DNA of 64,000 nt, from contig CBDBHR010000003.1 in assembly GCA_965205865.1 (NCBI GenBank), forward strand, positions 1 to 64,000. The letters run 5' to 3'. This document shows positions 2,928 through 55,376 of the stretch, piece by piece. This DNA comes from a bacterium (GTDB lineage Bacteria > SAR324 > NAC60-12). Position 1 is the first letter of the stretch; each line of letters begins with the position of its first letter. Made by a program: the position numbers and the translations under genes. The notes below the pieces were generated by a model that made no database searches, had not been told where the DNA came from, and saw only the letters and a program-made list of their open reading frames with translations.

Positions 2928-3839
2928 ATGACTGATTTCAAAGCAATCACCTCCTCGCTCGAGGAACGGGGCTTCTGCGTTGTCCCGGAATTCCTGAGCC
3001 ATGAAGAGATCGACTTCCTCGTGGAAGAATTCGATGCCAGCCCAGACTATTCCCCCCCAACGAAAACCAAGCATGCGGCGCAGCACCTTGGCGATAGGCC
3101 AGTTGCCGGTCAAACCGGAGCTCTGCGTGCTAACGCAATGGGACGAAAAGAAACCTTCCAAAGAATAGGTCCGCGGATGGAAGCGTTTGCCCAGGGACTC
3201 ACCGGAGCCAAGGCCGCGCTCTATCAAATTCTCTATCAACAGACCCCGGTAACCAATCTTTCCTTTCATCAGGATCACGATCACTTTTTCCTGACGGAGT
3301 ACAATCGGACTCATCTCAATTACTGGATTCCGTTGGTCAAACCCTCGCGCACCGAGGCGGGACTGCGCCTGGTTCCCTGGGATCGGCTTCGCGAAAAGTC
3401 GCCGCGACTCTTTAACCTCTGTCGGCGCTCGGGCGCCAGTAGACTGCACTCGCTTCGTGACGGGGGTACCTTGTATATTTCCGACTGGAGCGGGGTTCAC
3501 TGGCTCGAGGAAGATCTTGAAATCGAGGAGGTCATGGAGACTCCGGAGGTGGGACCCGGCGACCTGCTGCTGCTGCGCGTCAACACCATCCACGCGACGC
3601 AGACGACCGACGATCGACGCCTCGCGGTTTCGTTACGCACTTGCGATCCGGAGACGCCAATCGACTGGCATCGGGTGGCCGGCAGTCCCACAATGGCAAT
3701 GATGCAACGTCTCGGAGGCTTTAAGGGGCGGACGGGGCCCAACAAGTTGTTTTCCCCGGTTTTTCAAGCCACCCAGGAAAACGACTTCGGCATCACTCTG
3801 GGGGACATCGTGCCGACCCTGACTGGCGAGCGCGAGTAG
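2928..3839 (+). CDS. Phytanoyl-CoA dioxygenase-like (PhyH) Fe(II)/2OG dioxygenase
   Basis: ERGFCVVPEFLS start, HQD, YWIPL, PGDLLL...IHAT...RLAVS. Confidence 0.8.
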   Translation: MTDFKAITSSLEERGFCVVPEFLSHEEIDFLVEEFDASPDYSPPTKTKHAAQHLGDRPVAGQTGALRANAMGRKETFQRIGPRMEAFAQGLTGAKAALYQILYQQTPVTNLSFHQDHDHFFLTEYNRTHLNYWIPLVKPSRTEAGLRLVPWDRLREKSPRLFNLCRRSGASRLHSLRDGGTLYISDWSGVHWLEEDLEIEEVMETPEVGPGDLLLLRVNTIHATQTTDDRRLAVSLRTCDPETPIDWHRVAGSPTMAMMQRLGGFKGRTGPNKLFSPVFQATQENDFGITLGDIVPTLTGERE

Positions 3840-3976
3840 CCGAGCCGACTTTGCGGAAGAAAATGTGGTGGTGAAAAGTAATTTATGCAACAATACCGGT
3901 GGCGGCAGTCCTGTGTTCGTGATCAGTGAAATTCAATGCCACCATCAACTGAAATAAACCATAACAAAGGAGAACA

Positions 3977-4813
3977 ATGACAGGAAGACTAGCAGACAAA
4001 GTAGCAATCGTCACCGGAGGCAACAGCGGAATGGGCGCGGGCACGGTGGAATTATTCGTGTCCGAAGGAGCCCGGGTGATGATTGCGGCCCGGGGAGAGG
4101 AAGCAGGTCAGGCGCTGGCTGACCGGCTGGGTGAGAATGCGATTTTCAAGCGCACCGACGTTTCCGTCGAAGCAGACGTGAAGGCGTTGATTGACACCAC
4201 CGTTGAAAAGTGGGGACGTCTTGACGTGCTGTTCAACAACGCCGGCATCGGGCAGGGATACGTCAATGTCGAGGAATTCAGCATGGACGATTTTGACACC
4301 CTCTTAAAGGCGAATCTGGCCTCTTGTTTCCTCGGCATCAAATATGCGGCACCGATTATGAAGCAGCAGGGCAGGGGCAGCATCATCAACAATGGCAGCA
4401 CCGCCGGTGTGACCACTGATGGCTCGGGCCCCCTCTATTCAGTAAGTAAAGCCGGGGTGATCCACATCACCAAAGTTTTGGCTGTTGAACTTAGAGAGCA
4501 CGGGATTCGTGTTAACTGCATCTCGCCTGGTGCAATCGTGACCCCCATCTTCTGGGGTGGACACCAGACACAGTCCGCTGAGGAAAACGAACTCCGGACC
4601 CGTCGGCTCACGGAATACTTTGATGATGATTTGAAACGTGCGGGGACCCCCGAAGACATTGCCTATGCCGCGTTGTATTTGGCGAGTGATGAGAGCCTCC
4701 ACACCACGGGGCTCAATATGAGGGTTGACGCCGGATTGACCTGTCATAGTCGCCCCCGGAAGGATCTCATCAGCCGGGGCGAAACAAGGTACAAAAAAAT
4801 TATTGGTGACTGA
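3977..4813 (+). CDS. SDR family oxidoreductase
   Basis: TGGNSGMG, NNAG, YSVSK; RBS AAGGAG. Confidence 0.95.
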   Translation: MTGRLADKVAIVTGGNSGMGAGTVELFVSEGARVMIAARGEEAGQALADRLGENAIFKRTDVSVEADVKALIDTTVEKWGRLDVLFNNAGIGQGYVNVEEFSMDDFDTLLKANLASCFLGIKYAAPIMKQQGRGSIINNGSTAGVTTDGSGPLYSVSKAGVIHITKVLAVELREHGIRVNCISPGAIVTPIFWGGHQTQSAEENELRTRRLTEYFDDDLKRAGTPEDIAYAALYLASDESLHTTGLNMRVDAGLTCHSRPRKDLISRGETRYKKIIGD

Positions 4814-5003
4814 GGAAAAGCCGCCAATTGTGAGTCATAATGCTGAAACGGCGAGTGCTCCGGAAACTGCCAAAGAAACTGCGGCACGTCAAGACGCTCG
4901 TGCGGAAAAATAGATTGACATATCCGGACAGATAGCCAGAACAGGCGTTCTGTGATGGGGTCTGGCCATTGATTATGTCTGATTTCTTAATTCTATCGAA
5001 AAA

Positions 5004-5078
5004 GGGTTAGGCCTTTGATTATTTAATTAAGAACGGGTCAAGTTTTTTGCCTTCTTTTCATTTAATCAAAGGCCTGCC
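5004..5078. repeat. ~75-bp element with AGGCCTTTGATTA terminal inverted repeats
   Basis: Reverse-complement relative of 22411-22496. Confidence 0.75.
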
Positions 5079-5190
5079 TCCTCATTAATGTGAAAATAAA
5101 AAGGAGTTCTATGAAATTTGGAGTTCAATTCAGTTGTTGTGCTTCAGGGTATTTCCATGCATGAGCAATGGCAATATCGAAGCTGAGTGC

Positions 5191-5340
5191 CCTGCTCGAC
5201 CCCAGCCTGAGGGGCGGTGGCGGTCGCTATGGAGCCGTGAAGACAAAGAAGGCTCTATAAAATTACCTAAGGACGCCGACCTTCAGCGCTGCGGCCGGTC
5301 ACCGGTGATGCAGTCCAAAACATTATCATTTGGAAAGGTA
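5191..5340 (+). pseudogene. Duplicated 3' end of the dppC-like gene and its downstream flank
   Basis: Close similarity to 2325-2474. Confidence 0.85.
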
Positions 5341-5342
5341 GG

Positions 5343-5556
5343 TAACCTGAGTTCGACAAAAATCTTCAATAATATGAGTATCCTAGTGTATTTGTCATCC
5401 TCGCGAAAGCGGGGATCCAGATTTCAGTCTGGCCGCATACCTCTGGATTCCTTCCCTGCGTACGCAGGGATCTCGCAGGAATGACAAGGTTTCTCTAAGA
5501 TATGAAGATTCCATAACATATTGAATTTATTAAATTCTTATCTCGAACTCAGGTTA
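5343..5556 (+). mobile_element. MITE with 14-bp TIR (TAACCTGAGTTCGA) and internal REP pair
   Basis: TAACCTGAGTTCGA...TCGAACTCAGGTTA; near-identical to 27038-27235. Confidence 0.9.
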
Positions 5557-5565
5557 GGTATACTC

Positions 5566-5890
5566 ATGACTGATTTCAAGGCAATCGCCTCCTCGCTCGA
5601 GGAACGGGGTTTCTGCGTTGTCCCGGAATTCTTCAGCCGTGATGAGATCGACTTCCTCGTGGAAGAATTCGATGCAAGCCCAGACTATCCCCCGCAAATG
5701 AAAACCAAGCATAACGCGCGGCACCTTGGCGATCAGCCAGTTGCCGGTCAAACCGGAGCTCTGCGTTCTACCGCAATGGGACGAAAAGAAACCTTCCAAA
5801 AAATACGTCCGCGGATGGAAGCGTTCACCCAGGGAATCACCGGAGCCAAGGCCGCACTCTATCATATCCTCTATCTCCAGACTCCGGGGA
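5566..5890 (+). pseudogene. Truncated PhyH-like paralog
   Basis: Matches the first ~108 codons of 2928..3839 and breaks just before the HQD motif. Confidence 0.9.
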
Positions 5891-5896
5891 GCAATC

Positions 5897-6242
5897 ATGT
5901 CTACACAAGATAACGCTAACAACAACGAGCAGCTCTTATTGCCCGGCCGCCTGGGTGATCCCCAGAGGGACTGGAGGAGCGATCCGCGCGTTGACCCTTT
6001 TATGATCGCCGCGATCGTCTAGCGTGACTTAGACGATGCCGTGGCCGACGGGTCGGCCGTTGGACGCGGATTCGCCTCTGAAGGAAAAACGCGACTATAT
6101 CGCAAAAATCGAGCCTGACCATGAAGTCCGGTTCAAAGCTTTGAACTCGGACCTTCCCCCGATTGAGAATGTGGAGCGGCGTAGCAAGGTCATCAAGGGT
6201 GTGGACGGGAATGACATCCACTTGTATAGTAAAAATCATTAA
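5897..6242 (+). pseudogene. Alpha/beta-hydrolase (esterase-like) N-terminal fragment, disrupted
   Basis: LPGRLGDP..DPRVDP and IKGVDGNDIHLY in separate frames with a stop between. Confidence 0.55.
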
Positions 6243-6341
6243 GATCCGCACGTTCGCTCTGGATGAGAAATATTTTTTTACAATAATTTCAATATCTTAT
6301 GTTTGATATATTAAATACAGGAAACCCGAATTAATCCTTGG

Positions 6342-9300
6342 TCAGTGAAAGTCCCGGCTTTTGACTTGGATTGATTTATGCTTCAGTTGTGGTTCCCAGA
6401 TCATTTCTGCCACCAGGTGGGTCACTCCTTCGGCCACTTGCAGATTTCCAGTCACTCCCATGCAGGAAAGCGTTTTTGCTTGCAAGGAATAGCGCTCGAA
6501 AATCTTTTTCCAGATGACCAAGTTCACGAACCCCGTTTCGTCTTCAAGAGTCATGAATGTGACACCCCGCGCCGTCCCTGGTCGTTGGCGGCAAATGACC
6601 ATACCCGCATAGCGGACTCTGCGTCCGCCTGGCATTTGGTTGAGTTGACGAGCAGTGGGAAGTCCACGAGCCGACAGAGCAGGACGAAGTGGTTTGAGTA
6701 GGTGTCCCCGCGGGCTGTGGCTGCTGGTCTGGTGGTCCCATATGATTGATTCCAGACTACTCAGGGGGAGAAATTTAGGCAATGAGGTGTTGTTACTCAA
6801 TGGCAGTAAGGGTTTTTCCTGGTTTGCAAATCCCTGTATCTGCCACAGTGCGCTACGGCGGTCCAAAGCAAAACACTCGTAGGCGCCTGCCTCGGCCAAG
6901 GCTTCCAACTTGTTCTGGCGGAGACCACTTCGCCAGACAACATCCTGAAGATTACGAAAAGGAAGCTGTCGATTTGCCGCTACCAGCTTTTGCCAGTCTC
7001 GCTCCCCCAGTCCTTTGACGAAACGCAACCCCATGCGAACTGCAAAAGAAGTGGATTGCTTTCGATGACTGTCAGTCTCAACAAGAGTGCAATCCCAGTG
7101 GCTCTCGAGAATATTGACGGGTTGCACCGCGACCCCATGAATCCGGGCGTCATTGACGATGGTGGCGACGGAGTAGAAGCCCATCGGCTGCGCATTGAGC
7201 AAGGCGCAGATAAACTCTGCCGGATAATGACATTTGAGATAGGCGGTGGCATAGGCAATATGAGCAAAACTGGCAGCATGACTCTCGGGGAAGCCGTATT
7301 CTCCAAAGCCACGGATCTGCTGAAAGATACGCTTGGCAAACTCCTGCCGGATTCCTTTCTTCACCATGCGAGTAACAAGCCTCTCCTGGTGCCGCTCTAT
7401 GCGCCCTGATCGTCTCCAAGCCGCCATGTCCCGCCTGAGTTGGTCGGCTTCACCGGGGGTGTAGTCGGCTGCCACCATCGCTAATTGCATCACCTGCTCT
7501 TGGAACAGTGGAATGCCCAGTGTTTTCTTCAAAACCGGAATGAGAAATGGGTGGGGATATTCGATCTCCTCCTCTCCATTACGTCTTCGTAGATAAGGAT
7601 GGACCATACCCCCGCTGATCGGTCCGGGACGAACAAGGCTGATCTCGATCACCAAGTCATAATAATTGCGAGGTTTGAGCCGTCCCAACATGGCCATTTG
7701 GGCACGGCTTTCGATCTGAAACACTCCCACCGTATCGCTGTCACAGACCATATCATAGGTGGGGGCATCTTCCCTGGGGATGGTGACAAGAGAAAGCTTT
7801 TGCCGACGATGCTTCCAGAGGAGATCGAAGCAAAGGTGAAGATGGGTAAGGGCTCCCAATCCCAGCAGATCTACCTTGAATAGACCTGCTTGCTCCACGT
7901 CGTCCTTGTCCCACTGGATAACCGTTCTCCCTTCCATAGAGGCGTTTTCGATCGGCACTAAGTTGTGGACGGGACAATGGCCCAACAGAAAACCTCCGGG
8001 ATGAATGGAGAGATGGCGGGGAAAATCCTGAATCTCTTTCACTAAAGGAATCAGATGGCGCAGCGCCGGATTCCCGGGGTCGAGTCCTGCCTGCCGAATG
8101 ACCTCATCGCTCCAACGGTCGTGGGAAATCAGCTTAGCCAGTCGACCCAGGCTGGTTGCCGAAATTTCCAGCACTTTTCCTATTTCCCGGATAGCAGATC
8201 GGTATCGGTAACGGACTACATTGGCCACCATGGCAGCGTTCTCCCGTCCATACTTTTCGTAGACAAACCGGATCACCTCTTCCCGGCGTTTGTGCTCGAT
8301 ATCGAGATCAATATCCGGAGGCTCAGCCCTTTCCCTGGATAAGAAACGCTCGAAAAGAAGATCTACCTGGGTTGGATCCACGCTGGTGATCCCCAGTGCG
8401 AAGCAGACGGCAGAATTGGCAGCCGACCCACGACCCTGGTAAAGGATGTCTTGACGGCGACAGTATTCCACGATGACATGCATAGTCAGGAAGTAACCCT
8501 CGTATTCCAATTCCTTGATCAGCGCGAGTTCTTTCTCCAATTGTGGAATTTGCTCTTGAAACTTTCTGCCCAAGCGGCGGGCTGCGCCTTTGAAAGTGCA
8601 ATCTCGTAAATACTGGCTGGATGTCTTGCCTTCTGGTAATTGTTCCAGTGGATAACGGAAATGTAACTCTTTGAATGAAAAGGAACAACGGGCAGCAATC
8701 TCTCGGGTGCACATGACTGACTGAGGATCATCAAGAAAAAGTTTTGCAAGATCATCCGGGTTTTGCAAAGCGTACTGGTCGTTGGGCTGGATAAGCCGGC
8801 CAGCCGTGTTCAGGGTCACTCCTTCCCTGATACAGGTCAAAACGTCCTGCAATCGGCGCCGTTCGGGAGCGTGATAAAGGACTTCCACGGCAGCCACCAT
8901 GGGAAGGTCAAAACGGTCCGCCAATCTACGAAGTCGATCCTCCCGCAATACCTCTTCCGCTCTACAATGTCTGGTTAAAAGTAAATAGAGACGGTCTTCG
9001 AATGCTGATTCGAGCTGTTCCAGAACACGCTCCGGACCGCCCTCCGGAGGAGCATCCGGTTCAGACCGGCCAATCCACAGGGCAATCAATCCGGGATTGG
9101 AATGATAAACTTCCTGCCAGCTCAGCTTGCATTTTCCCTTTGAGGAACGCCGATGTCCCTCGGTCAACAAGTGACAGAGATTTTGGTAGCCTACTTTGTT
9201 TTGAACCAGCAAGAGGATTTCCGATCCGTCCTGTAGGCTGAGCTGAGATCCTACAATCAAGTGAATACCCAACTGAGAGGCTCGAACATGAGCCTTGACG

Positions 9301-46430: not shown

Positions 46431-46554
46431 TGACCTCTTTGCGGCGCTGAAGTGGAGCAGCCGCATAGTTCTTTAAGCAAGCCATTCGCGCAGTTATCCG
46501 CTCAGTTTTCCTTTGAACGATCGAGCATTGACGGCTCAAGATGTGGAGTGAAAC

Positions 46555-46997
46555 TAGTGCTTGACCGAAAAATACTCAAATTGCTGATATTAAATGACAA
46601 TTCTTCAATTTCACAGGATGAAGATTGGTTTGATGCAGTGTTCAGATGGCCAGACTAGCGAGAGTGGTCCTTCCTGGCGTTCCTCATCATGTCAGCCAGA
46701 GAGTGGCTCTCTCCATGGAAATCTTTTCAGCTGATGAGAATTGCAGAGAGTATCTCTCATTTCTCAAATAGCATGGAGAAAAAATAGTTTGTGCTTGGCA
46801 GAAAAATACTCAAATTGCTGATATTAAATGACATTTCTTCAATTTCATTGGATGAAGATTTGTTTGATACAGTGTTCAATTGGCCAAAATCAGCAAAAAA
46901 TAGGATTTTTGATGAGTTTCGCCAAAATCTTCGTTTCTTGAAAATAGGTGAATACCATTAAATATCATGTAGTTATCTAATTTTCGGTCAAGCACTA
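46555..46997. mobile_element. Non-autonomous element with 17-bp TIR and a duplicated left end
   Basis: TAGTGCTTGACCGAAAA ... TTTTCGGTCAAGCACTA; ~95-bp internal repeat (46557-46652 vs 46791-46886). Confidence 0.85.
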
Positions 46998-47080: not shown

Positions 47081-48826
47081 CTAATTCACCACGATAATTT
47101 CCTCTCCCAGCATATCCACGATTTTCACCGCCACTCTCGCGTCGGCGTGGGGGAGCGTCAGTTCATACCAGCCCCGGATAAAATCGGTCTTCTTTTTGGG
47201 CAGGTCGCTTTCCACGATGTTGAAACTCCTGTCGTTGTAATCGGTGTCGATCAGCACACAGTCGATTTGCGCCCGGAAATCTTCAATCTGCTCATCAAAG
47301 AGCGTTCTGTCTATTTCCATCCTGGCAAGGATGGATGGGCTGATGTAATCAATTATCTTCACCGTAGCTTTTGCGTCTTCCTTTGTAATCTCTACGATCG
47401 CCTCCGCGGGTTGATCCGTTATTACCCCGTCCTGCTGAATATCACAGATGGTGATGCGGTTTATCGGGGTTTTCTCTTCAGCCAGTTCAGTAATGATCCC
47501 CATTTCACTGCCATTGCAGAAAACTGCAATATCACGTGTTTCATCCGGCCGGTTGTTTTGAATTTCATCTTTTATAATCTGAATATCCAACCGGGTCAGC
47601 GGCCTGTTCAAATCCAAAATTTTCACCAACTGCCCCCCGACGGTTCCGTCGAAAAACAAGTCCTTCCGGTCTGTCTGAATACCGTATTTGGAGACAATGA
47701 TTTTCTTCAGTCTGTCCTGTTTGGCGAAGTCGTAGTTATTCACTCGGTAATGGATGAAGCCACGTCTGTTTTTCTCCACAAGATCTTCGTTTTTTTTTGC
47801 AATGACAACCTGCAAGCGTTTGATGGTGGTTTGAATTGCGCCCTTGTTCAAATCCGCCATGATCCAGCGACGGCCCAACTTTTCCGCGACCACAGCGGTG
47901 GTGCCACTACCACAGAAGCAATCCAGGACGATTGAATCTTCATTGCTTGAAGCTTTGATGATTCGTTCCAATAGGTCTTTAGGTTTTTGGGTGGGAAAAT
48001 CTGATCTCTCTGTTTTGTCTAAAGGATTTATTATGGGTATATACCAAGTATCTCTTCGGAGTATGAAAGTATAAGTGCCATTTTCATCTACAAACCATTC
48101 TCGCTCTGCATTTTTTAGTTTTTCCTTCCCTTCTCTTTTACCTTGAACATACTTCTTTTCGTCTTTTGATACATTGAAAATTGCTTTGTCTGTCTTGCTA
48201 TATAAAAATATGTTGTCATGTTTTTTTGCGAACCCTTTTTCTCCTGCTCCTCCGGAATAATAGTGCCAAATCACTTCATTTATAAAATTCTCTTTTCCAA
48301 ACACCTCGTCCAGCAAAAATCGCAGGTGATGGCTTTTGTGCCAATCACAATGCAGATAGATGCTACCATTTTCGCTCAGCAATTCCCGCATCAGAATCAG
48401 CCGTTCATACATGAATTGCAAATAGTTATCATTGGCCCAGATGTCCACGTATTGCGCCTGCTCGATGGAAGTGTGTCCTTCCCCTTCCAATTTTTCAGTT
48501 TGTCTGCGCAGTTTCACTCTACGTATATAATCCGCGCCGGAATCAAAGGGAGGGTCAATGTAGATCAAATCGATCTTTCCCCGGAACCCGGCAATCAACA
48601 GCGAGGAGAGAATCTCCTTGTTGTCTCCATGAAAAAGCAGATTGTAATCGCTTTTCACAAATTCCGAATAAGACGGCTCAGCCGGTGGATTGTCCACGCC
48701 AACGGTCTCGCATAGCTGCGCCGGGAAATGACGCACCACGTCCAACGGTTTCTTATCAAGCCAATGCAGCATCTGGCGACCCTTGATGGGGGTGATTTTG
48801 AGGGGTTTCTTTTTCGGCTCAGTCAT
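47081..48826 (-). CDS. mod: N6-adenine/N4-cytosine DNA methyltransferase (type III Mod-like)
   Basis: DLIYIDPPF precedes PTQKP..DCFCGSGTT (beta order). Confidence 0.92.
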   Translation of the reverse strand: MTEPKKKPLKITPIKGRQMLHWLDKKPLDVVRHFPAQLCETVGVDNPPAEPSYSEFVKSDYNLLFHGDNKEILSSLLIAGFRGKIDLIYIDPPFDSGADYIRRVKLRRQTEKLEGEGHTSIEQAQYVDIWANDNYLQFMYERLILMRELLSENGSIYLHCDWHKSHHLRFLLDEVFGKENFINEVIWHYYSGGAGEKGFAKKHDNIFLYSKTDKAIFNVSKDEKKYVQGKREGKEKLKNAEREWFVDENGTYTFILRRDTWYIPIINPLDKTERSDFPTQKPKDLLERIIKASSNEDSIVLDCFCGSGTTAVVAEKLGRRWIMADLNKGAIQTTIKRLQVVIAKKNEDLVEKNRRGFIHYRVNNYDFAKQDRLKKIIVSKYGIQTDRKDLFFDGTVGGQLVKILDLNRPLTRLDIQIIKDEIQNNRPDETRDIAVFCNGSEMGIITELAEEKTPINRITICDIQQDGVITDQPAEAIVEITKEDAKATVKIIDYISPSILARMEIDRTLFDEQIEDFRAQIDCVLIDTDYNDRSFNIVESDLPKKKTDFIRGWYELTLPHADARVAVKIVDMLGEEIIVVN

Positions 48827-49593
48827 GCCACATACCTTTCAATATCGGACATAACCCCTTCTTGAAGATCAGTGAGATTCGGGTACTGCTTGTCCGCGTT
48901 CCTGGTTAGATAAGTGACTTCTTTGTTTCCCAGATCCAGCATATTCTCGTATACCACCAGACTGATAAAGGGAAGATTTGCTTTTTTGAACTCCAGCAAT
49001 GCGATCGCCGTACTTTTTGCCTTGTCGTTCCCGATCACTCCAAAGAGGTAGAATTTACGGTTTTTGTAGCTTAAAGACCAATCTACGGTGAGAATTCTAT
49101 AGTCCGGGAGAGGAAGGTCATCTTGTTTAGGATCAAATTTCTCCAACTCTTTTGTGGCATACTCTTTCAAGTCCTCGTAGAATGTGGAACGGACATTTTC
49201 TCTGCTCCAATAGCGCATATTGCAGACTTTTTGTACGCAGCCAGCAAATTGAAGTACACTCTCATAAAGCATTTCCAGAGTCGTATCCAAATAAAGATTC
49301 CCTTCCTCATTTTGAACGTCACTGTTTATCAGAATGCTTTCAAATATTTTCTGGCGAGAATTCGTATTTAATTCATAAGTGTATGAAAGACGCATGACCG
49401 CCATGCCAAAGTCGCAGATACGAATATGGTTTTCGCATTCAGGGCTATCTTGCAGATAGATATCCACCATATCACCGTCTTCATGGCGAATAGGAGCGAT
49501 AAGCTGGAATTTTCCCGGTCTCCGCTCATACACATCAAAGCCAGTTCGGGTTTTTTCGCGGAGTAAATTCAGGGCTCGGTCAATTTTCATCAT
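48823..49593 (-). CDS. DUF1828-like protein
   Basis: P..HEDGD.VDIY...I.D.G N-terminal pattern. Confidence 0.65.
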   Translation of the reverse strand: MMKIDRALNLLREKTRTGFDVYERRPGKFQLIAPIRHEDGDMVDIYLQDSPECENHIRICDFGMAVMRLSYTYELNTNSRQKIFESILINSDVQNEEGNLYLDTTLEMLYESVLQFAGCVQKVCNMRYWSRENVRSTFYEDLKEYATKELEKFDPKQDDLPLPDYRILTVDWSLSYKNRKFYLFGVIGNDKAKSTAIALLEFKKANLPFISLVVYENMLDLGNKEVTYLTRNADKQYPNLTDLQEGVMSDIERYVA

Positions 49594-50080
49594 GATTTAG
49601 ACTCAAACTCATCTGGCGTGATTCAGGAAAGTACTCTAAATAATTTATTACGCCAATGTCACCAAAGAAAACTTCGAGAGCTTGCTCAAAGGTATTATAT
49701 CCGTTCGTAATTTCTCTATACTTTTCCTGTGGTTGCGTACTACCGGAATCCATTTCCGTAGCGGTCATGCGATGTATGTGGGGTTTATCATAATGACCAT
49801 TCTGGGATCGACTTGTTTCTCCATGTGGGCCGTTATAGCGCACGAGCGTGATCGAACCCAGCTCACTATTGTTGGTTTGATAACGTAAACCAATCGAGTA
49901 GTTTTCTATAAAATTATTATTTTGACGAATAAAAACCCAAAATGACTCGCCTTCTTGGTTTTGCAAAGTCAAGGCACAACGTTTGTGATTGTTTTCATCC
50001 TTGTATCCCGTATTAGGAACTTTTCTCTTTATCTCCTTGGGAGATCGTATCAGGTCTTGAATTGCTTGATCTGTCAGCAT
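49580..50080 (-). CDS. Uncharacterised protein with RYNGPH...PHIH motifs (DUF6978-like)
   Basis: Overlaps the DUF1828-like gene; histidine motif pattern. Confidence 0.55.
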   Translation of the reverse strand: MLTDQAIQDLIRSPKEIKRKVPNTGYKDENNHKRCALTLQNQEGESFWVFIRQNNNFIENYSIGLRYQTNNSELGSITLVRYNGPHGETSRSQNGHYDKPHIHRMTATEMDSGSTQPQEKYREITNGYNTFEQALEVFFGDIGVINYLEYFPESRQMSLSLNHDEN

Positions 50081-50128
50081 AGGACATGTTCGCTTCCTGC
50101 CTATAGATTTTAATTTGATTTTTCAGCC

Positions 50129-50584
50129 TCAAGTTGAAAAATATGTAAAGACAATAATGAGAGTTAAAAAAAGAAAAAAGAAGATCAAGGGAAGAAAGGT
50201 TTCAACAATGGTGAGCTTCCAATAACGACTTTTATTTTTTCCTTCCTCCAATAACTCCCATTCACGCTTGAAAAAGGGATAGGCAAGTTTTTTTTCTAAC
50301 TCATGTAAAGCATCAAATTTTCCTGTATTGAGCTGACGATAGGAACGGATGACAACAAACCACGATACAGAAAGTAAAATTCCCAAAATGCAAAAAGCTG
50401 TCAAAACTGATTTAACATGAATAATTTCTGAGCCATATCTGAGAAAAGTAGCAAGGACAAGGACAATTCCCGTTAGCAGACTGACATAAAGCCTGTTAGC
50501 TCCTTCCCTTCTTTGGCTCACCCGGTCCGCGAGTTCGGCATGGAGTTTGTAGATTTCCAAAAGTTCCTGTCTGTTTCCGTCCAT
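50129..50584 (-). CDS. Small 3-TM membrane protein, candidate pore effector
   Basis: Three hydrophobic helices; YK..ADRVS.RR..AN and SY.QLN..KF motifs; TAATG overlap with the TIR gene. Confidence 0.7.
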   Translation of the reverse strand: MDGNRQELLEIYKLHAELADRVSQRREGANRLYVSLLTGIVLVLATFLRYGSEIIHVKSVLTAFCILGILLSVSWFVVIRSYRQLNTGKFDALHELEKKLAYPFFKREWELLEEGKNKSRYWKLTIVETFLPLIFFFLFLTLIIVFTYFST

Positions 50585-50993
50585 TATGCTAACTCCCTTA
50601 TCGCTGAGACAATGCTGTCAGTGTTCCACTTAACAATTCGGGACGCGTTACTTTTAACAATCCGAGATGTTTTCTCACTGCCCCAAGGTTCTACTGCTAC
50701 AATAGGTTTTGGAGTTGTAAATTCCTTTTGTGCTATTTGTATCTCTTTCTGTATCCACTTGCTGTAGGTTGCATAAACTCCTGCTAGTATGAGAGCGACA
50801 CTACAGGTTGCATTTGCCGCAAAATTGCTTCATACAATTCCTTGTCAGTTCCCGACGTGTGTAATGGATCATCTTTCGGCACAGAATAATTTTTGAAGGC
50901 AAAGTAGGGTCTTTCCCTCAATAATATTTCCAGTTTTTCATAAATGTCCGAATACGCCCAAGAATGGCTGATAAATAAATTATAGGTTCTCAT
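50584..50993 (-). pseudogene. ThsB-like TIR protein, 1-nt frameshift near 50805
   Basis: LFISHSW..QMQP then shifted frame CSVALILAGVYATYSKWIQKEI..KPIVAVEPWG..SIVSAIRELA*. Confidence 0.9.
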
Positions 50994-51019
50994 GTCTGTC
51001 TCCTTAATTTAATGCGAGT

Positions 51020-51490
51020 TTAACCAATCGATAATTGGTTTGATTTTCTCTGCTCTTGTTTAAAGTTCCTGTCTGATTTCGTCCATTGGGCTAACTCCCT
51101 TATCGCTGAGACAATGCTGTTGGTATTCCAGCCAACAATCTGGTCGGCATGATCTCGGACCTTCGCAGAGATTTCATTTGTACAAGGCCGTAAAGCAAGA
51201 ATAGGTTTTGGTTTCGAAAAGCCACTTTTAGCAATCTTGATTTCCTTGTCTATCCACTCACTGTACTCAGCATAGACTCTCGCTAAAACGATTACGATAC
51301 CGCATGGTTGCATCTTATTGTGGATTACCTTGGATAACTGTTTGTCTGTACTATCAAGCACGGGAACTTTTTTGGGGATGGAGTGGTTGTGATAACGAAA
51401 GTTGTTGGCTTGTTTCAATAGATTGACCAAGTTGCTGTATTGGTCATGGTATGTCCAGGAGTGGCTGATAAATAAATGGTACGTTTTCAT
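51020..51490 (-). CDS. ThsB-like (DUF1863-type) TIR protein
   Basis: LFISHSW, SEWIDKEI (catalytic-position Glu), KPIL, VGWN..SIV.AI. Confidence 0.9.
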   Translation of the reverse strand: MKTYHLFISHSWTYHDQYSNLVNLLKQANNFRYHNHSIPKKVPVLDSTDKQLSKVIHNKMQPCGIVIVLARVYAEYSEWIDKEIKIAKSGFSKPKPILALRPCTNEISAKVRDHADQIVGWNTNSIVSAIRELAQWTKSDRNFKQEQRKSNQLSIG

Positions 51491-51500
51491 ATCTACCTCA

Positions 51501-54098
51501 TTATGAGTTTTTCCAATCTATAACTGGTTTTAATTTTTCTGCGCTTATCGTGGTAGCAGACGTATAAACGACGTGGTACTTGAATTTATCCGGTTGTAAA
51601 TTTTGCAGCCGTTCCACCGCTTTTTGCTTTGCTTCCACCGTTTTATCACCACGCTCGTTCTCGGTCTTGACCTCGACAATGTAAAACTCCCCCGTCTCTT
51701 TCACAAGCACAAAATCGGGAAAGTAGCGATGATAGCGTTTGTCTTGGCCCATATATTCGAAATGAAAGTCGGTTTTCCTGGGATCGGTCAAACCACCGGT
51801 GAACAGAAAGGCTTCCACGTCGTCGGGGTCCGTATTGAGATTCGACAAAATCTGCCGAAAGAAGGAACGCTCCGGCTCGCTGTCGAAGTTGTAAGGCGTG
51901 TAGTGAAAACTCAAATCGTACTTGTCTGAATAGTGCGCACTTTCAGCTAAAAGTCCGTTGTTCTTCATCTGATCATACGTCCTCTTGAGCAAACGCAAAC
52001 GGTGGACGTAAACACCATTCTCGTCCTTTTCAAAAACGTCCTTTCCATTTTCATCCTGAACCCGAATCAGCGCCAGGGCAACGGTGATCTTTTCTTCAAC
52101 GGTCTTGTAGTTCGCCTGCTGCTTTTCGACCTGCTGAAACAGTCCGTATAATTCACTATTTTGTATCTCCCCTTGTGGATACAGACTGTTGAGCCTCTGC
52201 AAAACCGGCATGACCGGAAGATGGTATCTCGAGGCGATTTTCCAGGAGGCGGTATGGCAATCCGTGGTTTCTCTTTCTGCAAATAGTTCCTTAGTGTCAC
52301 CTGTCGGCATCAGTATTTCTCCCGGTCCGCTAAAATCAGGAGTCAGGATGTTACGTAGAATTGCTGGGGTCTTCTGTGGTTCAGGTCGTTCCAGCGTGAT
52401 ATTACCGTCAGGTGTTTCGCTGCGGACAGCCCGCTTGACGGTGCGGGATATTTCCAGTTGCGGCAACTCCGTTTTAACGATTCGCAGGGTTACGCTCTCT
52501 TTGTCCCTTGCTCTGGCGCTGAGCCGGTCCAGATCGGTGCCGAAATTGTCCTGTAATTCTTTATCCAACGTTCTGGCATTTCCGTAGTCCAGAAATATCT
52601 TTGCGGAATGCTTGTTTCCCGGGATCTGGCGCAGGCAACGTGTTGCCGCCTGGAGGACATAGTTGTTGCTGGTTGTTTGCTCTTTGATAAGCGCGCAGGC
52701 AAACAGGCTGGGACAATTCCATCCTTCCACTCCTTTGGCGATCAGCAGAATGACGCGCTTTTGATTACCGGGATTGTTGAGACGCTTGAATTCGTCAACT
52801 TGCGACACGTCCGATTTTTGCGTGTTGACCAAGACCTGAGAGGCGCTTTCTCCAATACCCGCCATGGCCTGCTCGATCAGTAGCCTTGAGTCTTCCAGAT
52901 GTTCCTGCGTCTTGAAATAAAAGGCAATCTTCGCTCTTGCCCCGTTGGGAAGTGTCACGTCCCCATAATTCGTGAAAAATTCTCTGATGATGTCGTGGAA
53001 CACTTCCTGTTCGGGTTGCTCGCCGATGTCGTATTGATGAATCCCGTGAGTGAGGTCCTTCAAGATGTTGTCTTTGATGCCTTCCCCCAGCCCATACCAG
53101 ACGATGACCTCTTTCAGGTGCTGTTTCTTGTAATAAGGCGTTCCGGTCGTGTTGACAACAGCGACTATCGGTGTTTGCTCATGGATGTAGTTGATGGTTT
53201 CCCGCACCCGTTTCAACTTGTCAAAAGTGTTTCCATAGGTGTGATGCGCTTCGTCAGAAAAGACTCCGGGATTGGGCAAACTGGTAATTTTTTGCAGTCT
53301 CAGATTGGCTTGCAGCTCCTCACGCTCGAACGCCCATTCCGTCTGGTTGCTTCTTCTATTGGCACGCAGGCTGATCTTCTCGGTGTTGGTGACAATCAAA
53401 TTGTAACCGCTGCCTCTCTGCGCCTGTATGTCTTTTTCACTGCCGGGATACTCGATCTTCAAATTTGCGGCAAAATCGCGTTGGAGGTCGGGTGGCAGAA
53501 CCTGCTCATAGGGCATGTCGCTGAGTTCCCGCAGGCTTTCGATGATCGTCGTACCGGGTGCAAAGACTAGAGCATTTTTCATAAATTTGCCCTCGGGGTA
53601 ACGGAGAGACATTGCAAACTCGGTGGCGACTATCGTCCCGATCAGCACGGTCTTTCCCGCACCCATGGCCAAGGCGAGGATGTAGCTCGGATAGGGGAGC
53701 ATTGCAGCTTCATGCAAAGCCTGAATTCTTTTTTCAGTTACGAAAGCCGGATCGTCTTTGACTTTCTTGACCACGTCATCTACTTAAGCCCACTCCAAAG
53801 CGTCGCTTGACATCGAAATACCAAGCGAATCAAAAAAGATTTTTTTATCATGCCCGTAGTAGCGCTTATAGAGGTCCAGAATATGAGGGGTTCCCAATTT
53901 CAAGCGGACGTACCAGTAAGTTTCAAGAGCAAGAAACTGGGGTTCACGGAGAAATTTGAAGGTTGGTTCACCTGTTTCTGTTTCAGACTCCATTTGCCAG
54001 GCGAGAATTTCCCCGATGAGTGAGTATTCATCGCAGGCATATCCACCTTTGCGCCATTCAAAGGCGGATTCTTTCAACTGATCGAAGAGGGATGGCAT
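51501..54098 (-). pseudogene. res: Type III Res-like helicase-nuclease split by one in-frame TAA (53784-53786)
   Basis: LAMGAGKT, DEAH, EGWNCP, YFPDF..IVEVK; both ORFs are in the same frame. Confidence 0.88.
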
Positions 54099-54170: not shown

Positions 54171-55376
54171 TTAAGCTGTATCTTGTTGTAGTTTTTCTAA
54201 TGATGCGATTGCACTGCTTAAATTTGACTGAACATCACACCCATATAGATTTTCGAAACTCAACTGTTTTTGTGTCACCAAGTGTGCCAATCGTTTTTCA
54301 GTAAAAAAATATTCACAATAGGGTAATGCTAAAGCTGCGTGGAAAAAGTCATGGACGTCATGGCCTTGAAATTTATGCCTTTTGTCCCAACGTACGGCGG
54401 CATACAATGCCGAGATAATATGTATTGCCGGCATTGCTTTGCCTACTTTATCTAGTCGGAAGAGATGGTAAATAAGCACCTCCAGTTTGGTTTTAGCTCG
54501 ATGCTCCCTTGCTTCATTCTCCGATATAGTTTTTCCTGTTGTTTTCTGAAACAGATCTTCCATCATGTCAGCCAGAAGATCACGATAACTCATGATATAA
54601 CCGCTAACTTCATCCAGAAACATTTGTTTGGAACTTTGTGCTTCATCTTGATGTTCAATTTTTTCTTTATTAAGCTTATTGGCTATATCAAAATCAGATG
54701 GAGGCTTCAGCCCACCATTTTTCGCCATGACATCAATCATTTGAGACATGGATAGAAACCACAGGTGATCTAAAAATGCTTTCCGGTGGATAATGTTTTC
54801 TTCAGAACTCATAAAACTTAACTCTGGTACTGGAAAAGCATTTGAAGTCACGTGACAAGCAAGCTTAGTCCAAATAAGCTCCTTTGTCTCGTATACTTTG
54901 CCAATTTTGCCTATAATTGAATACAAAATATGTCTAATTTCTGGCTTTACATTTCCTGGGATTAGCCGGTTTTGCAAACTGGAAAGCGTTGAATACAAAA
55001 AGTGTCGAATTTCCAGCTTTACACGCTCATCATAACCCACTGACATTACGCCGTTGGACAACCTATCTATCAGCTCTGCGGTCACTTTCAGAGTTTTAAC
55101 ATCAGTTTGCTTCATAACCTCCATGAAAACATCTTCACTAATTGGGAATATGCAAATTTGATAAGCCGAAAGCTCAAGAGCCAGATTGAGCAATGTATTT
55201 TCTAGTTTATTCTTTTCAGGCTGGAGGTAACCTTCTCGGAGGAGCAACCAAAACTTTGTATCAAGATAGACAATTTTTCTGTCCAAAATTTGCTTTGAAA
55301 GCTCCAAACTTAGCGAATAATAATAGTCCTCAATTGATTGTTCAGACATTGACTTGTTTGTTTTCGGGGTAGTCAT
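54171..55376 (-). CDS. Hypothetical protein with PIN-like motifs
   Basis: IVYLDTKFW ... HDFFHAALALPYCEYFFTE; AT-rich. Confidence 0.55.
   Translation of the reverse strand: MTTPKTNKSMSEQSIEDYYYSLSLELSKQILDRKIVYLDTKFWLLLREGYLQPEKNKLENTLLNLALELSAYQICIFPISEDVFMEVMKQTDVKTLKVTAELIDRLSNGVMSVGYDERVKLEIRHFLYSTLSSLQNRLIPGNVKPEIRHILYSIIGKIGKVYETKELIWTKLACHVTSNAFPVPELSFMSSEENIIHRKAFLDHLWFLSMSQMIDVMAKNGGLKPPSDFDIANKLNKEKIEHQDEAQSSKQMFLDEVSGYIMSYRDLLADMMEDLFQKTTGKTISENEAREHRAKTKLEVLIYHLFRLDKVGKAMPAIHIISALYAAVRWDKRHKFQGHDVHDFFHAALALPYCEYFFTEKRLAHLVTQKQLSFENLYGCDVQSNLSSAIASLEKLQQDTA

Follow-up and report, generated by a model that had tools for sequence, protein, structure and literature searches.

Within a 64,000-nucleotide stretch of DNA from a bacterium of the SAR324 lineage (GenBank assembly GCA_965205865.1, contig CBDBHR010000003.1, positions 1 to 64,000; hereafter the window), we find two genes for ThsB-type TIR proteins, TIR1 and TIR2, and next to them a gene for a small membrane protein of the Pfam family 8xMP (Table 1). 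Judging from the genes, their families, their coupling, their setting and their conservation, we put the balance of probability modestly in favour of a Thoeris-type anti-phage module that would use the 8xMP protein as its effector and that sits, as a mobile unit, in a type III-like restriction–modification system, with res on one side and mod on the other.

TIR2 and the 8xMP gene are joined by a TAATG stop/start overlap (50582-50586), as claimed in an earlier note on the same DNA (the original prediction). Its statement that no ThsA gene is present also agrees with our Pfam scan of nine neighbouring proteins, in which no SIR2, SLOG or Macro gene was found. Across genomes, the pairing was counted at the loci of the best 80 of 117 confirmed relatives (loci bear L numbers below). 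In 46 of these 80 loci a match to the cognate-TIR profile lies directly upstream of 8xMP on the same strand, 32 times as an intact pair and 14 times split or partial, so that a TIR gene stands in a conserved operon with a non-TIR gene, the arrangement by which Thoeris loci are recognised. Five further loci have an upstream TIR or its remains, for a total of 51 of 80 when TIRs that lie further upstream or belong to other families are counted. A TIR-domain open reading frame (ORF) or fragment is found directly upstream of 8xMP in L019 and L071, and a TIR lies further upstream in L003 and L007, in the latter past a transposase; in L001 (697-1722) a TIR_2-family protein with Ig-like domains takes the place of the ThsB-type TIR. 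A variant partner of another kind occurs in L018 (4841-5992), where the TIR ORF runs on into a Phage_Mu_F-like domain. On plasmids, where 32 records matched, an annotated TIR gene is directly upstream in 10 of the 14 contexts inspected, five haloarchaeal; these plasmid contexts, below 45% identity, belong to Proteobacteria, Actinomycetota, Cyanobacteriota and haloarchaea. Co-occurrence of the homologues with TIR genes, set beforehand as one of the points on which the original prediction could fail, was thus observed both at the genome loci and on the plasmids.

A second, divergent pair is present in the same genome, on contig C18 (L082, 1486-2335, minus strand), where a TIR gene of 146 amino acids (aa) overlaps an 8xMP gene whose product is 33% identical to that of the window. 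Two other genomes of the phylum hold a TIR–8xMP pair, with 8xMP split in one of them. Altogether, of 88 genomes of the phylum 4 have an 8xMP match above the cut-off, and the one genome that shares the genus has none, a patchy distribution that fits horizontal spread. Divergence of the TIRs correlates with that of their 8xMP partners (r = 0.34, a value reached by 12 of 5000 permutations), and for 15 of 32 pairs the TIR and the 8xMP have their nearest relative in one and the same locus; the pair is therefore mostly, but not always, co-inherited. A true TIR–8xMP fusion was not found: four longer proteins were detected, and the three inspected proved to be a frameshift read-through (P0122) and upstream ORF extensions (P0121 and P0123), while the fourth, P0124, is the L071 ORF (1413-4127), in which 8xMP runs on into an AAA_21 ATPase. 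As a separate observation, an 8xMP homologue on a Rhizobium leguminosarum plasmid (NZ_CP050092.1; L149, 1-4108) begins 2 bases after the gene of a 1215-aa protein with WD40 repeats that RefSeq annotates as NB-ARC.

Both TIR genes exceed the cut-off of the Pfam ThsB_TIR family (21.2 bits), in agreement with the original claim of two ThsB-like genes. TIR1 scores 53.2 bits (4.3e-14) and also matches the PADLOC ThsB model (9.7e-13); the C-terminal half of TIR2 scores 25.3 bits (6.5e-5), and its N-terminal half shares 72% identity with the TIR next to 8xMP in L006. An AlphaFold2 (AF2) model of TIR1 (predicted local distance difference test, pLDDT, 84.7) has the alternating strand–helix pattern of the TIR fold, and in Foldseek it retrieves MTH538, a Bacillus cereus TIR protein and EcThsB at ~1e-3, beside nucleoside-hydrolase folds; when the TIR profile was searched against the sequences of the Protein Data Bank, MTH538 was the sole match. 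The glutamate of the W-I-x-K-E-I motif, which had been reported for both TIRs, is indeed present in each, and the corresponding E83 is conserved without exception in all 18 aligned relatives. In line with the ThsB literature, we take this conserved Glu of the W-x-x-x-E motif to be the catalytic residue.

The membrane protein belongs to 8xMP, the 'octameric membrane protein family' of Pfam, at 125.4 bits against a cut-off of 30, and is matched end to end (profile positions 1-134 of 136); 18 of 18 aligned relatives likewise match this family. The small three-helix protein of the original prediction is thus confirmed in its three hydrophobic segments, but it is not an unrecognisable one. The family is large: a near-length search gave 1515 relatives and a profile search 3775 representative clusters at E <= 1e-3, and RefSeq plasmid records label the relatives 'hypothetical protein'. 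The N-terminal and central segments together carry 17 lysines and arginines and the short loop 2, and therefore the N-terminus and the segment 80-123 should face the cytoplasm. In the AF2 monomer model (pLDDT 77.8) the chain is folded into four helices (3-54, 57-100, 104-116 and 119-150). Pairwise identity averages 0.74 over the cytoplasmic segments and 0.48 over the transmembrane (TM) segments and loop, and the conserved basic and aromatic cytoplasmic residues include K13, R25, R26, R80, R83, K89, Y12, Y82, F90 and W109. Among solved structures there was no sequence match at E up to 1 and no Foldseek match at E <= 1e-3. Two further candidates were set aside: the best wide match in VIA-align, a designed TM nanopore, had a Z of 9.7, which is under the tool's stated noise level for helical models, and the best named clusters in the protein atlas, DUF3278-like (0.81) and PycTM-containing (0.75), were all below 0.9 and count as leads only. 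A search of the accessible literature for the family, by name and accession, and for RipA in a phage context yielded nothing relevant.

The TIR genes and the membrane protein make up a conserved, coupled module that lacks ThsA, and the effector role is the best reading of the latter, as originally proposed, whereas the pore that went with that proposal is something we only infer. The mechanism we envisage is as follows. One or both of the minimal ThsB-like TIRs would sense infection and respond by making an ADP-ribose-derived signal from NAD+. The 8xMP protein, predicted to sit in the inner membrane by three TM helices with its N-terminus in the cytoplasm, may form a ring, of eight copies if the Pfam name is taken literally, and its basic, aromatic and conserved cytoplasmic face may bind the signal. 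The ring would then breach the membrane and the infected cell would be stopped, which would amount to protection against phage. The cassette itself would be a mobile unit between res and mod of a type III-like system and would travel with the restriction system.

Several observations weigh against this assignment. The TIR proteins are bare TIR domains of ~135-140 aa without a sensor domain, and, as the original prediction had also stated, no nucleotide-sensing domain is recognised by Pfam in 8xMP, either in the window protein or in the 18 members. PADLOC has no model for 8xMP. Its comparison by hhalign with ten sequences of DUF2270 gave a probability of 0.4%, and that with SLATT_1, from shallow alignments, 0.8%; these are the families of the small membrane effectors considered at the end. 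Two genes of the string are interrupted in this assembly, res by an in-frame stop and TIR2 by a frameshift. In 29 of the 80 loci no TIR is detectable by the subfamily profile, and yet, of the 50 columns with >=90% conservation among the paired copies, 44 are retained in these TIR-less 8xMP proteins. Five TIR-less genomes have ThsB-type TIR genes elsewhere, with no 8xMP beside them, and those TIRs match the cognate profile weakly (4 of 8 fetched regions, best 1.5e-9). Finally, according to a December 2025 preprint on TIR systems (bioRxiv 10.64898/2025.12.03.692087), the TIR may itself be an NAD-depleting effector in types that have not been verified.

The last point bears on an inversion of the roles, with activation by contact. 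An 8xMP ring would then be a membrane sensor or scaffold at whose cytoplasmic face TIRs gather, and these TIRs, once assembled, would be the actual effector through depletion of NAD+. The lack of a sensor part in the TIRs would then be accounted for, the genes of the pair are translationally coupled in most loci, their divergence correlates, and the same preprint allows for a TIR effector in unverified types. Against this, no true fusion of the two is found among the four longer proteins (three inspected), ThsB-type TIRs cluster with signalling TIRs according to that preprint, and orphan 8xMP is conserved without a TIR. We therefore regard the inverted order as improbable, yet the most serious of the alternatives. 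Similarly improbable is membrane-level sensing, in which the 8xMP ring would detect a phage-caused disturbance of the inner membrane and assemble TIRs, so that the Thoeris order would be inverted or sensing and killing fused, and in which the orphans of Poribacteria would represent a TIR-independent use.

These orphans belong to the TIR-less copies of 8xMP, which by the columns that they keep are still under the same constraint as the paired ones. A Pfam scan of the upstream ORFs in 18 of the 29 TIR-less loci revealed no TIR; the ORFs found there encode P-type ATPases, Eco57I-like enzymes, SNF2/NOV_C helicases, a TonB receptor and others. The Poribacteria loci scanned, 4 of 4 (L059, L061, L062 and L063; ~3500-6460), have a heavy-metal P-type ATPase gene and no TIR ahead of an intact 8xMP gene, and an upstream ORF of the same size, judged by size only, occurs in L065, L069, L070, L075 and L079; the ATPase–8xMP arrangement looks like a syntenic, vertically kept orphan. 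Such copies are a warning that the 8xMP family may have a second, TIR-independent function, and together with the conservation of the 29 TIR-less loci they lend some weight to the idea that 8xMP is autonomous, acting in superinfection exclusion or envelope homeostasis, and that its adjacency to TIR genes reflects the hitch-hiking of two independent defence genes. RipA of Francisella tularensis, discussed below, would be a precedent for a role outside defence if it is kin to 8xMP. We consider this distinctly unlikely for the module as a whole: the gene overlap and the same-strand adjacency recur in bacteria and archaea where identity is under 40%, which hitch-hiking alone hardly explains. Stand-alone ThsB-type TIRs, moreover, are not known to have a function of their own without an effector, which also counts against autonomy.

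Returning to the Thoeris-type module that we favour, its cassette can be followed in related loci. The gene order res, TIR, TIR, 8xMP, mod recurs in L002 and L006, with variants in L003, L007, L018 and L001. Between the window and the Latescibacterota loci L002, L003, L006 and L007, 8xMP is 68-73% identical, TIR1 (against the post-res TIR) 70-80%, the larger res piece 77-81% and mod (against the gene after 8xMP) 66-71%, and the whole block 66-81%; given the similar identities of res, TIR1, 8xMP and mod, the block therefore moves as one. The two TIR units of the window are nearly identical in DNA across the junction that separates TIR from 8xMP, where TIR1 has a sense codon in place of the stop, followed by nine codons left over from an 8xMP start, of which eight are sense codons and the last is a stop. 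Four orthologues of the TIR_A type, the type that follows res, end 22 residues before the end of TIR1, whose C-terminal extension of that length holds the relic, and in L007 a 31-aa relic of an 8xMP N-terminus stands after TIR_A at the same place. From this junction fossil and the L007 fragment it follows that the ancestor had two tandem TIR–8xMP cassettes, of which the first lost its effector.

The surroundings of the cassette also point to defence. Among 47 neighbours upstream of TIR, 13 are restriction-type and 10 otherwise defence-associated (23 of 47), 10 are housekeeping-like and 14 belong to no family, in raw counts of upstream neighbours only, taken without a background rate and with 'defence-associated' as a grouping of our own; in the window, the cassette lies between res on one side and a PDC-M24 gene pair and mod on the other, as in a defence island. 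As an observation in its own right, TIR–8xMP or lone 8xMP is repeatedly found just downstream of restriction or SNF2-type helicase genes, for example hsdR in the Polaromonas plasmid L133 and SNF2 with NOV_C in L014, L050 and L052. Metagenome-assembled genomes account for nearly all of the 80 loci and belong to at least twelve phylum-level groups, with 17 loci in Poribacteria, and close copies of the 8xMP cassette, 53-78% identical, are found in at least a dozen phyla. Many of the host genomes are, judging from their names, sponge symbionts, and close copies across phyla in such hosts point to recent exchange within one habitat.

The frameshift in TIR2 that the original prediction described is present in the window, but close relatives in other samples lack it. 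The reading frame changes after codon 63, with a base missing in a short C run at 50805-50807. Public contigs were compared over 50100-51600 of the window. Near-identical contigs of runs X3 (depth 7.1) and X4 (depth 20.3), from two other studies, have one extra G behind 50805, by which the TIR2 frame is restored, and are otherwise identical to the window over 50589-51119. In run X2, two perfect-match contigs meet at 50806-50807, with an overlap of two bases at depth 2. Since X3 and X4 are intact and the X2 contigs end there, the break in TIR2 is due either to an error of assembly or to a very young difference between strains, and TIR2 is, as far as these contigs tell, best regarded as functional in the population.

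The N-terminal piece of res (Table 1) is a different case. Its residues 1-104 align with the N-termini of intact orthologues in L002, L003, L006 and L018, four relatives that have one uninterrupted ORF of 861-866 aa, and when the translation is read past the stop at 53784-53786 the next res ORF continues in the same frame; the reads compared do not span this stop. Local decay is possible for res, and the case for it is weakened for TIR2. That the whole island is a decaying, inactive remnant in this genome, with res and TIR2 broken and the 8xMP gene of TIR1 lost, we hold to be very unlikely, for although the in-frame stop, the frameshift, the relic after TIR1 and the 14 split or partial TIRs among the 46 directly upstream ones could be so explained, the frameshift is missing from the near-identical contigs of two other runs, TIR1, 8xMP, both PDC-M24 genes and mod are intact, and 8xMP matches its profile over the full length.

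All the genes concerned form a tightly packed, co-directional string on the minus strand (54098 to 47081), with intergenic gaps of 10-48 bases or else overlaps.

Table 1. Features of the minus-strand gene string around the TIR–8xMP cassette, in the order of transcription.
Feature	Position in window	Strand	Basis or remark
res, N-terminal piece, 104 codons	53784..54098	-	ended by in-frame stop 53784-53786; type III-like
res, remainder, 757 aa, ResIII helicase and C-terminal nuclease-like region	51501..53774	-	Pfam ResIII 2.5e-5
TIR1, minimal ThsB-type TIR, 156 aa, 'TIR_A' type after res	51020..51490	-	Pfam PF08937, PADLOC ThsB
Junction relic (TIR stop/8xMP start) in 3' tail of TIR1	51060..51088	-	DNA alignment of the two TIR units
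TIR2, ThsB-type, 'TIR_B' type coupled to 8xMP, frameshifted after codon 63	50584..50993	-	ThsB_TIR match
8xMP-family membrane protein, 151 aa, candidate effector	50129..50584	-	Pfam PF24838 1.8e-36
DUF6978 / PDC-M24A gene	49580..50080	-	Pfam DUF6978 4.3e-7; PADLOC PDC-M24A 1.4e-5
DUF1828 / PDC-M24B gene	48823..49593	-	Pfam DUF1828 1.2e-15; PADLOC PDC-M24B 3.1e-14
mod, N6/N4 DNA methyltransferase, 581 aa	47081..48826	-	Pfam N6_N4_Mtase 1e-48; PADLOC MTase_III 7.7e-65

A ResIII subunit and a Mod methyltransferase share this operon, as in type III restriction–modification systems, with res carrying the in-frame stop; the res remainder has weak Pfam matches to TnsA-like and VRR_NUC families, and PADLOC gave no match for res. 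The A and B genes of PDC-M24 are adjacent and overlapping, and in the window they have been inserted between 8xMP and mod as a candidate defence pair in its own right. That they are a separate mobile cassette is indicated by L010, where homologues of both sit upstream of TIR instead.

Directly upstream of res, a 401-aa ORF (54171-55376) had no significant match in Pfam, PADLOC or NCBIfam, its sole row being an NCBIfam one whose 15.7 bits (E 0.0072) fall short of the cut-off of 194. Perhaps this ORF is one more island gene, of no recognised family. Beyond the other end of the string (46452-46961), two short ORFs ~340 bases apart share closely similar peptides, with a further short ORF (46646-46771) between them, and look like a remnant of a repeat or mobile element. 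A scan for promoters and terminators was not above shuffled sequences (18 promoter-like elements against 14.7 expected, and 6 terminator-like against 8.2). The G+C content drops to 0.39 at 50-51 kb, other bins of 44-58 kb having 0.38-0.50, and this dip is too mild for dating an insertion.

Of the proteins with which 8xMP may be compared, RipA of Francisella tularensis, to which the kinship of the window protein is putative, is a small cytoplasmic-membrane protein linked to LpxA and lipid A synthesis (PMC4322802), unlike our candidate effector in having, in the accessible part of that report, a lipid A role and no link to TIR or phage defence; NCBIfam gave no RipA-named match for any of the 18 8xMP members. 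With type I/II Thoeris the window shares ThsB-type TIR genes, often several, beside one effector gene, but its neighbourhood is without the SIR2-SLOG or TM-Macro effector ThsA.

Closer parallels are provided by the Thoeris preprint (bioRxiv 10.64898/2025.12.03.692087), which reports experimental verification of type V, made up of ThsB and ThsF (DUF2270, PF10028) with 3' cyclic ADP-ribose (3'cADPR) as signal, and of type VII, made up of ThsB and ThsH (SLATT) with cyclic ADP-ribose (cADPR). It also models ThsF and ThsH as rings or filaments with positively charged inter-protomer pockets, and in it the ThsB-type TIRs of PF08937, the family of TIR1, group with those that signal. In our literature search, ThsF and ThsJ, the latter the type IX effector, were found in no paper besides this one. 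Type V and the window have in common a ThsB-type TIR adjoining a small protein of three membrane helices, with no SIR2, SLOG or Macro domain; they differ in that the candidate effector of the window is not a DUF2270 protein and in the two TIR genes of the window. PF10028 had no match in the window's own genome or in any of the 88 genomes of the phylum. Type VII likewise combines a TIR with a small helical membrane effector, ThsH being described there as a cytoplasmic helix at the N-terminus, then a TM hairpin and a further helical stretch in the cytoplasm, but 8xMP has a third TM helix. SLATT had no Pfam match in the window protein or the 18 members, and NCBIfam SLATT_1 had sub-threshold matches in 5 of the 18 (best E 9e-4). 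The conserved basic and aromatic face of 8xMP resembles the pockets modelled in ThsF and ThsH.

The module is therefore not the new kind of system that the original prediction supposed, for the combination of a TIR with a small oligomeric membrane effector has already been verified in types V and VII. To this known combination 8xMP would add a candidate family of effectors. Particular to the present locus are its position within a restriction operon, the history of tandem cassettes, the intact TIR2 allele elsewhere, the wide exchange among many phyla and the conserved TIR-less copies. Three local features are helpful for testing, namely the natural intact allele of TIR2, the travelling of the cassette as a block with a type III-like restriction system and the close copies in at least a dozen phyla. 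If 8xMP is indeed the receptor of a TIR signal, it would stand beside ThsF and ThsH as a third, unrelated solution to one problem, in which a membrane protein of very small size responds to an ADP-ribose-derived signal with no classical nucleotide-binding domain; and as a large family (the 3775 clusters above) that extends into the archaea, it would noticeably increase the share of genomes with TIR signalling.

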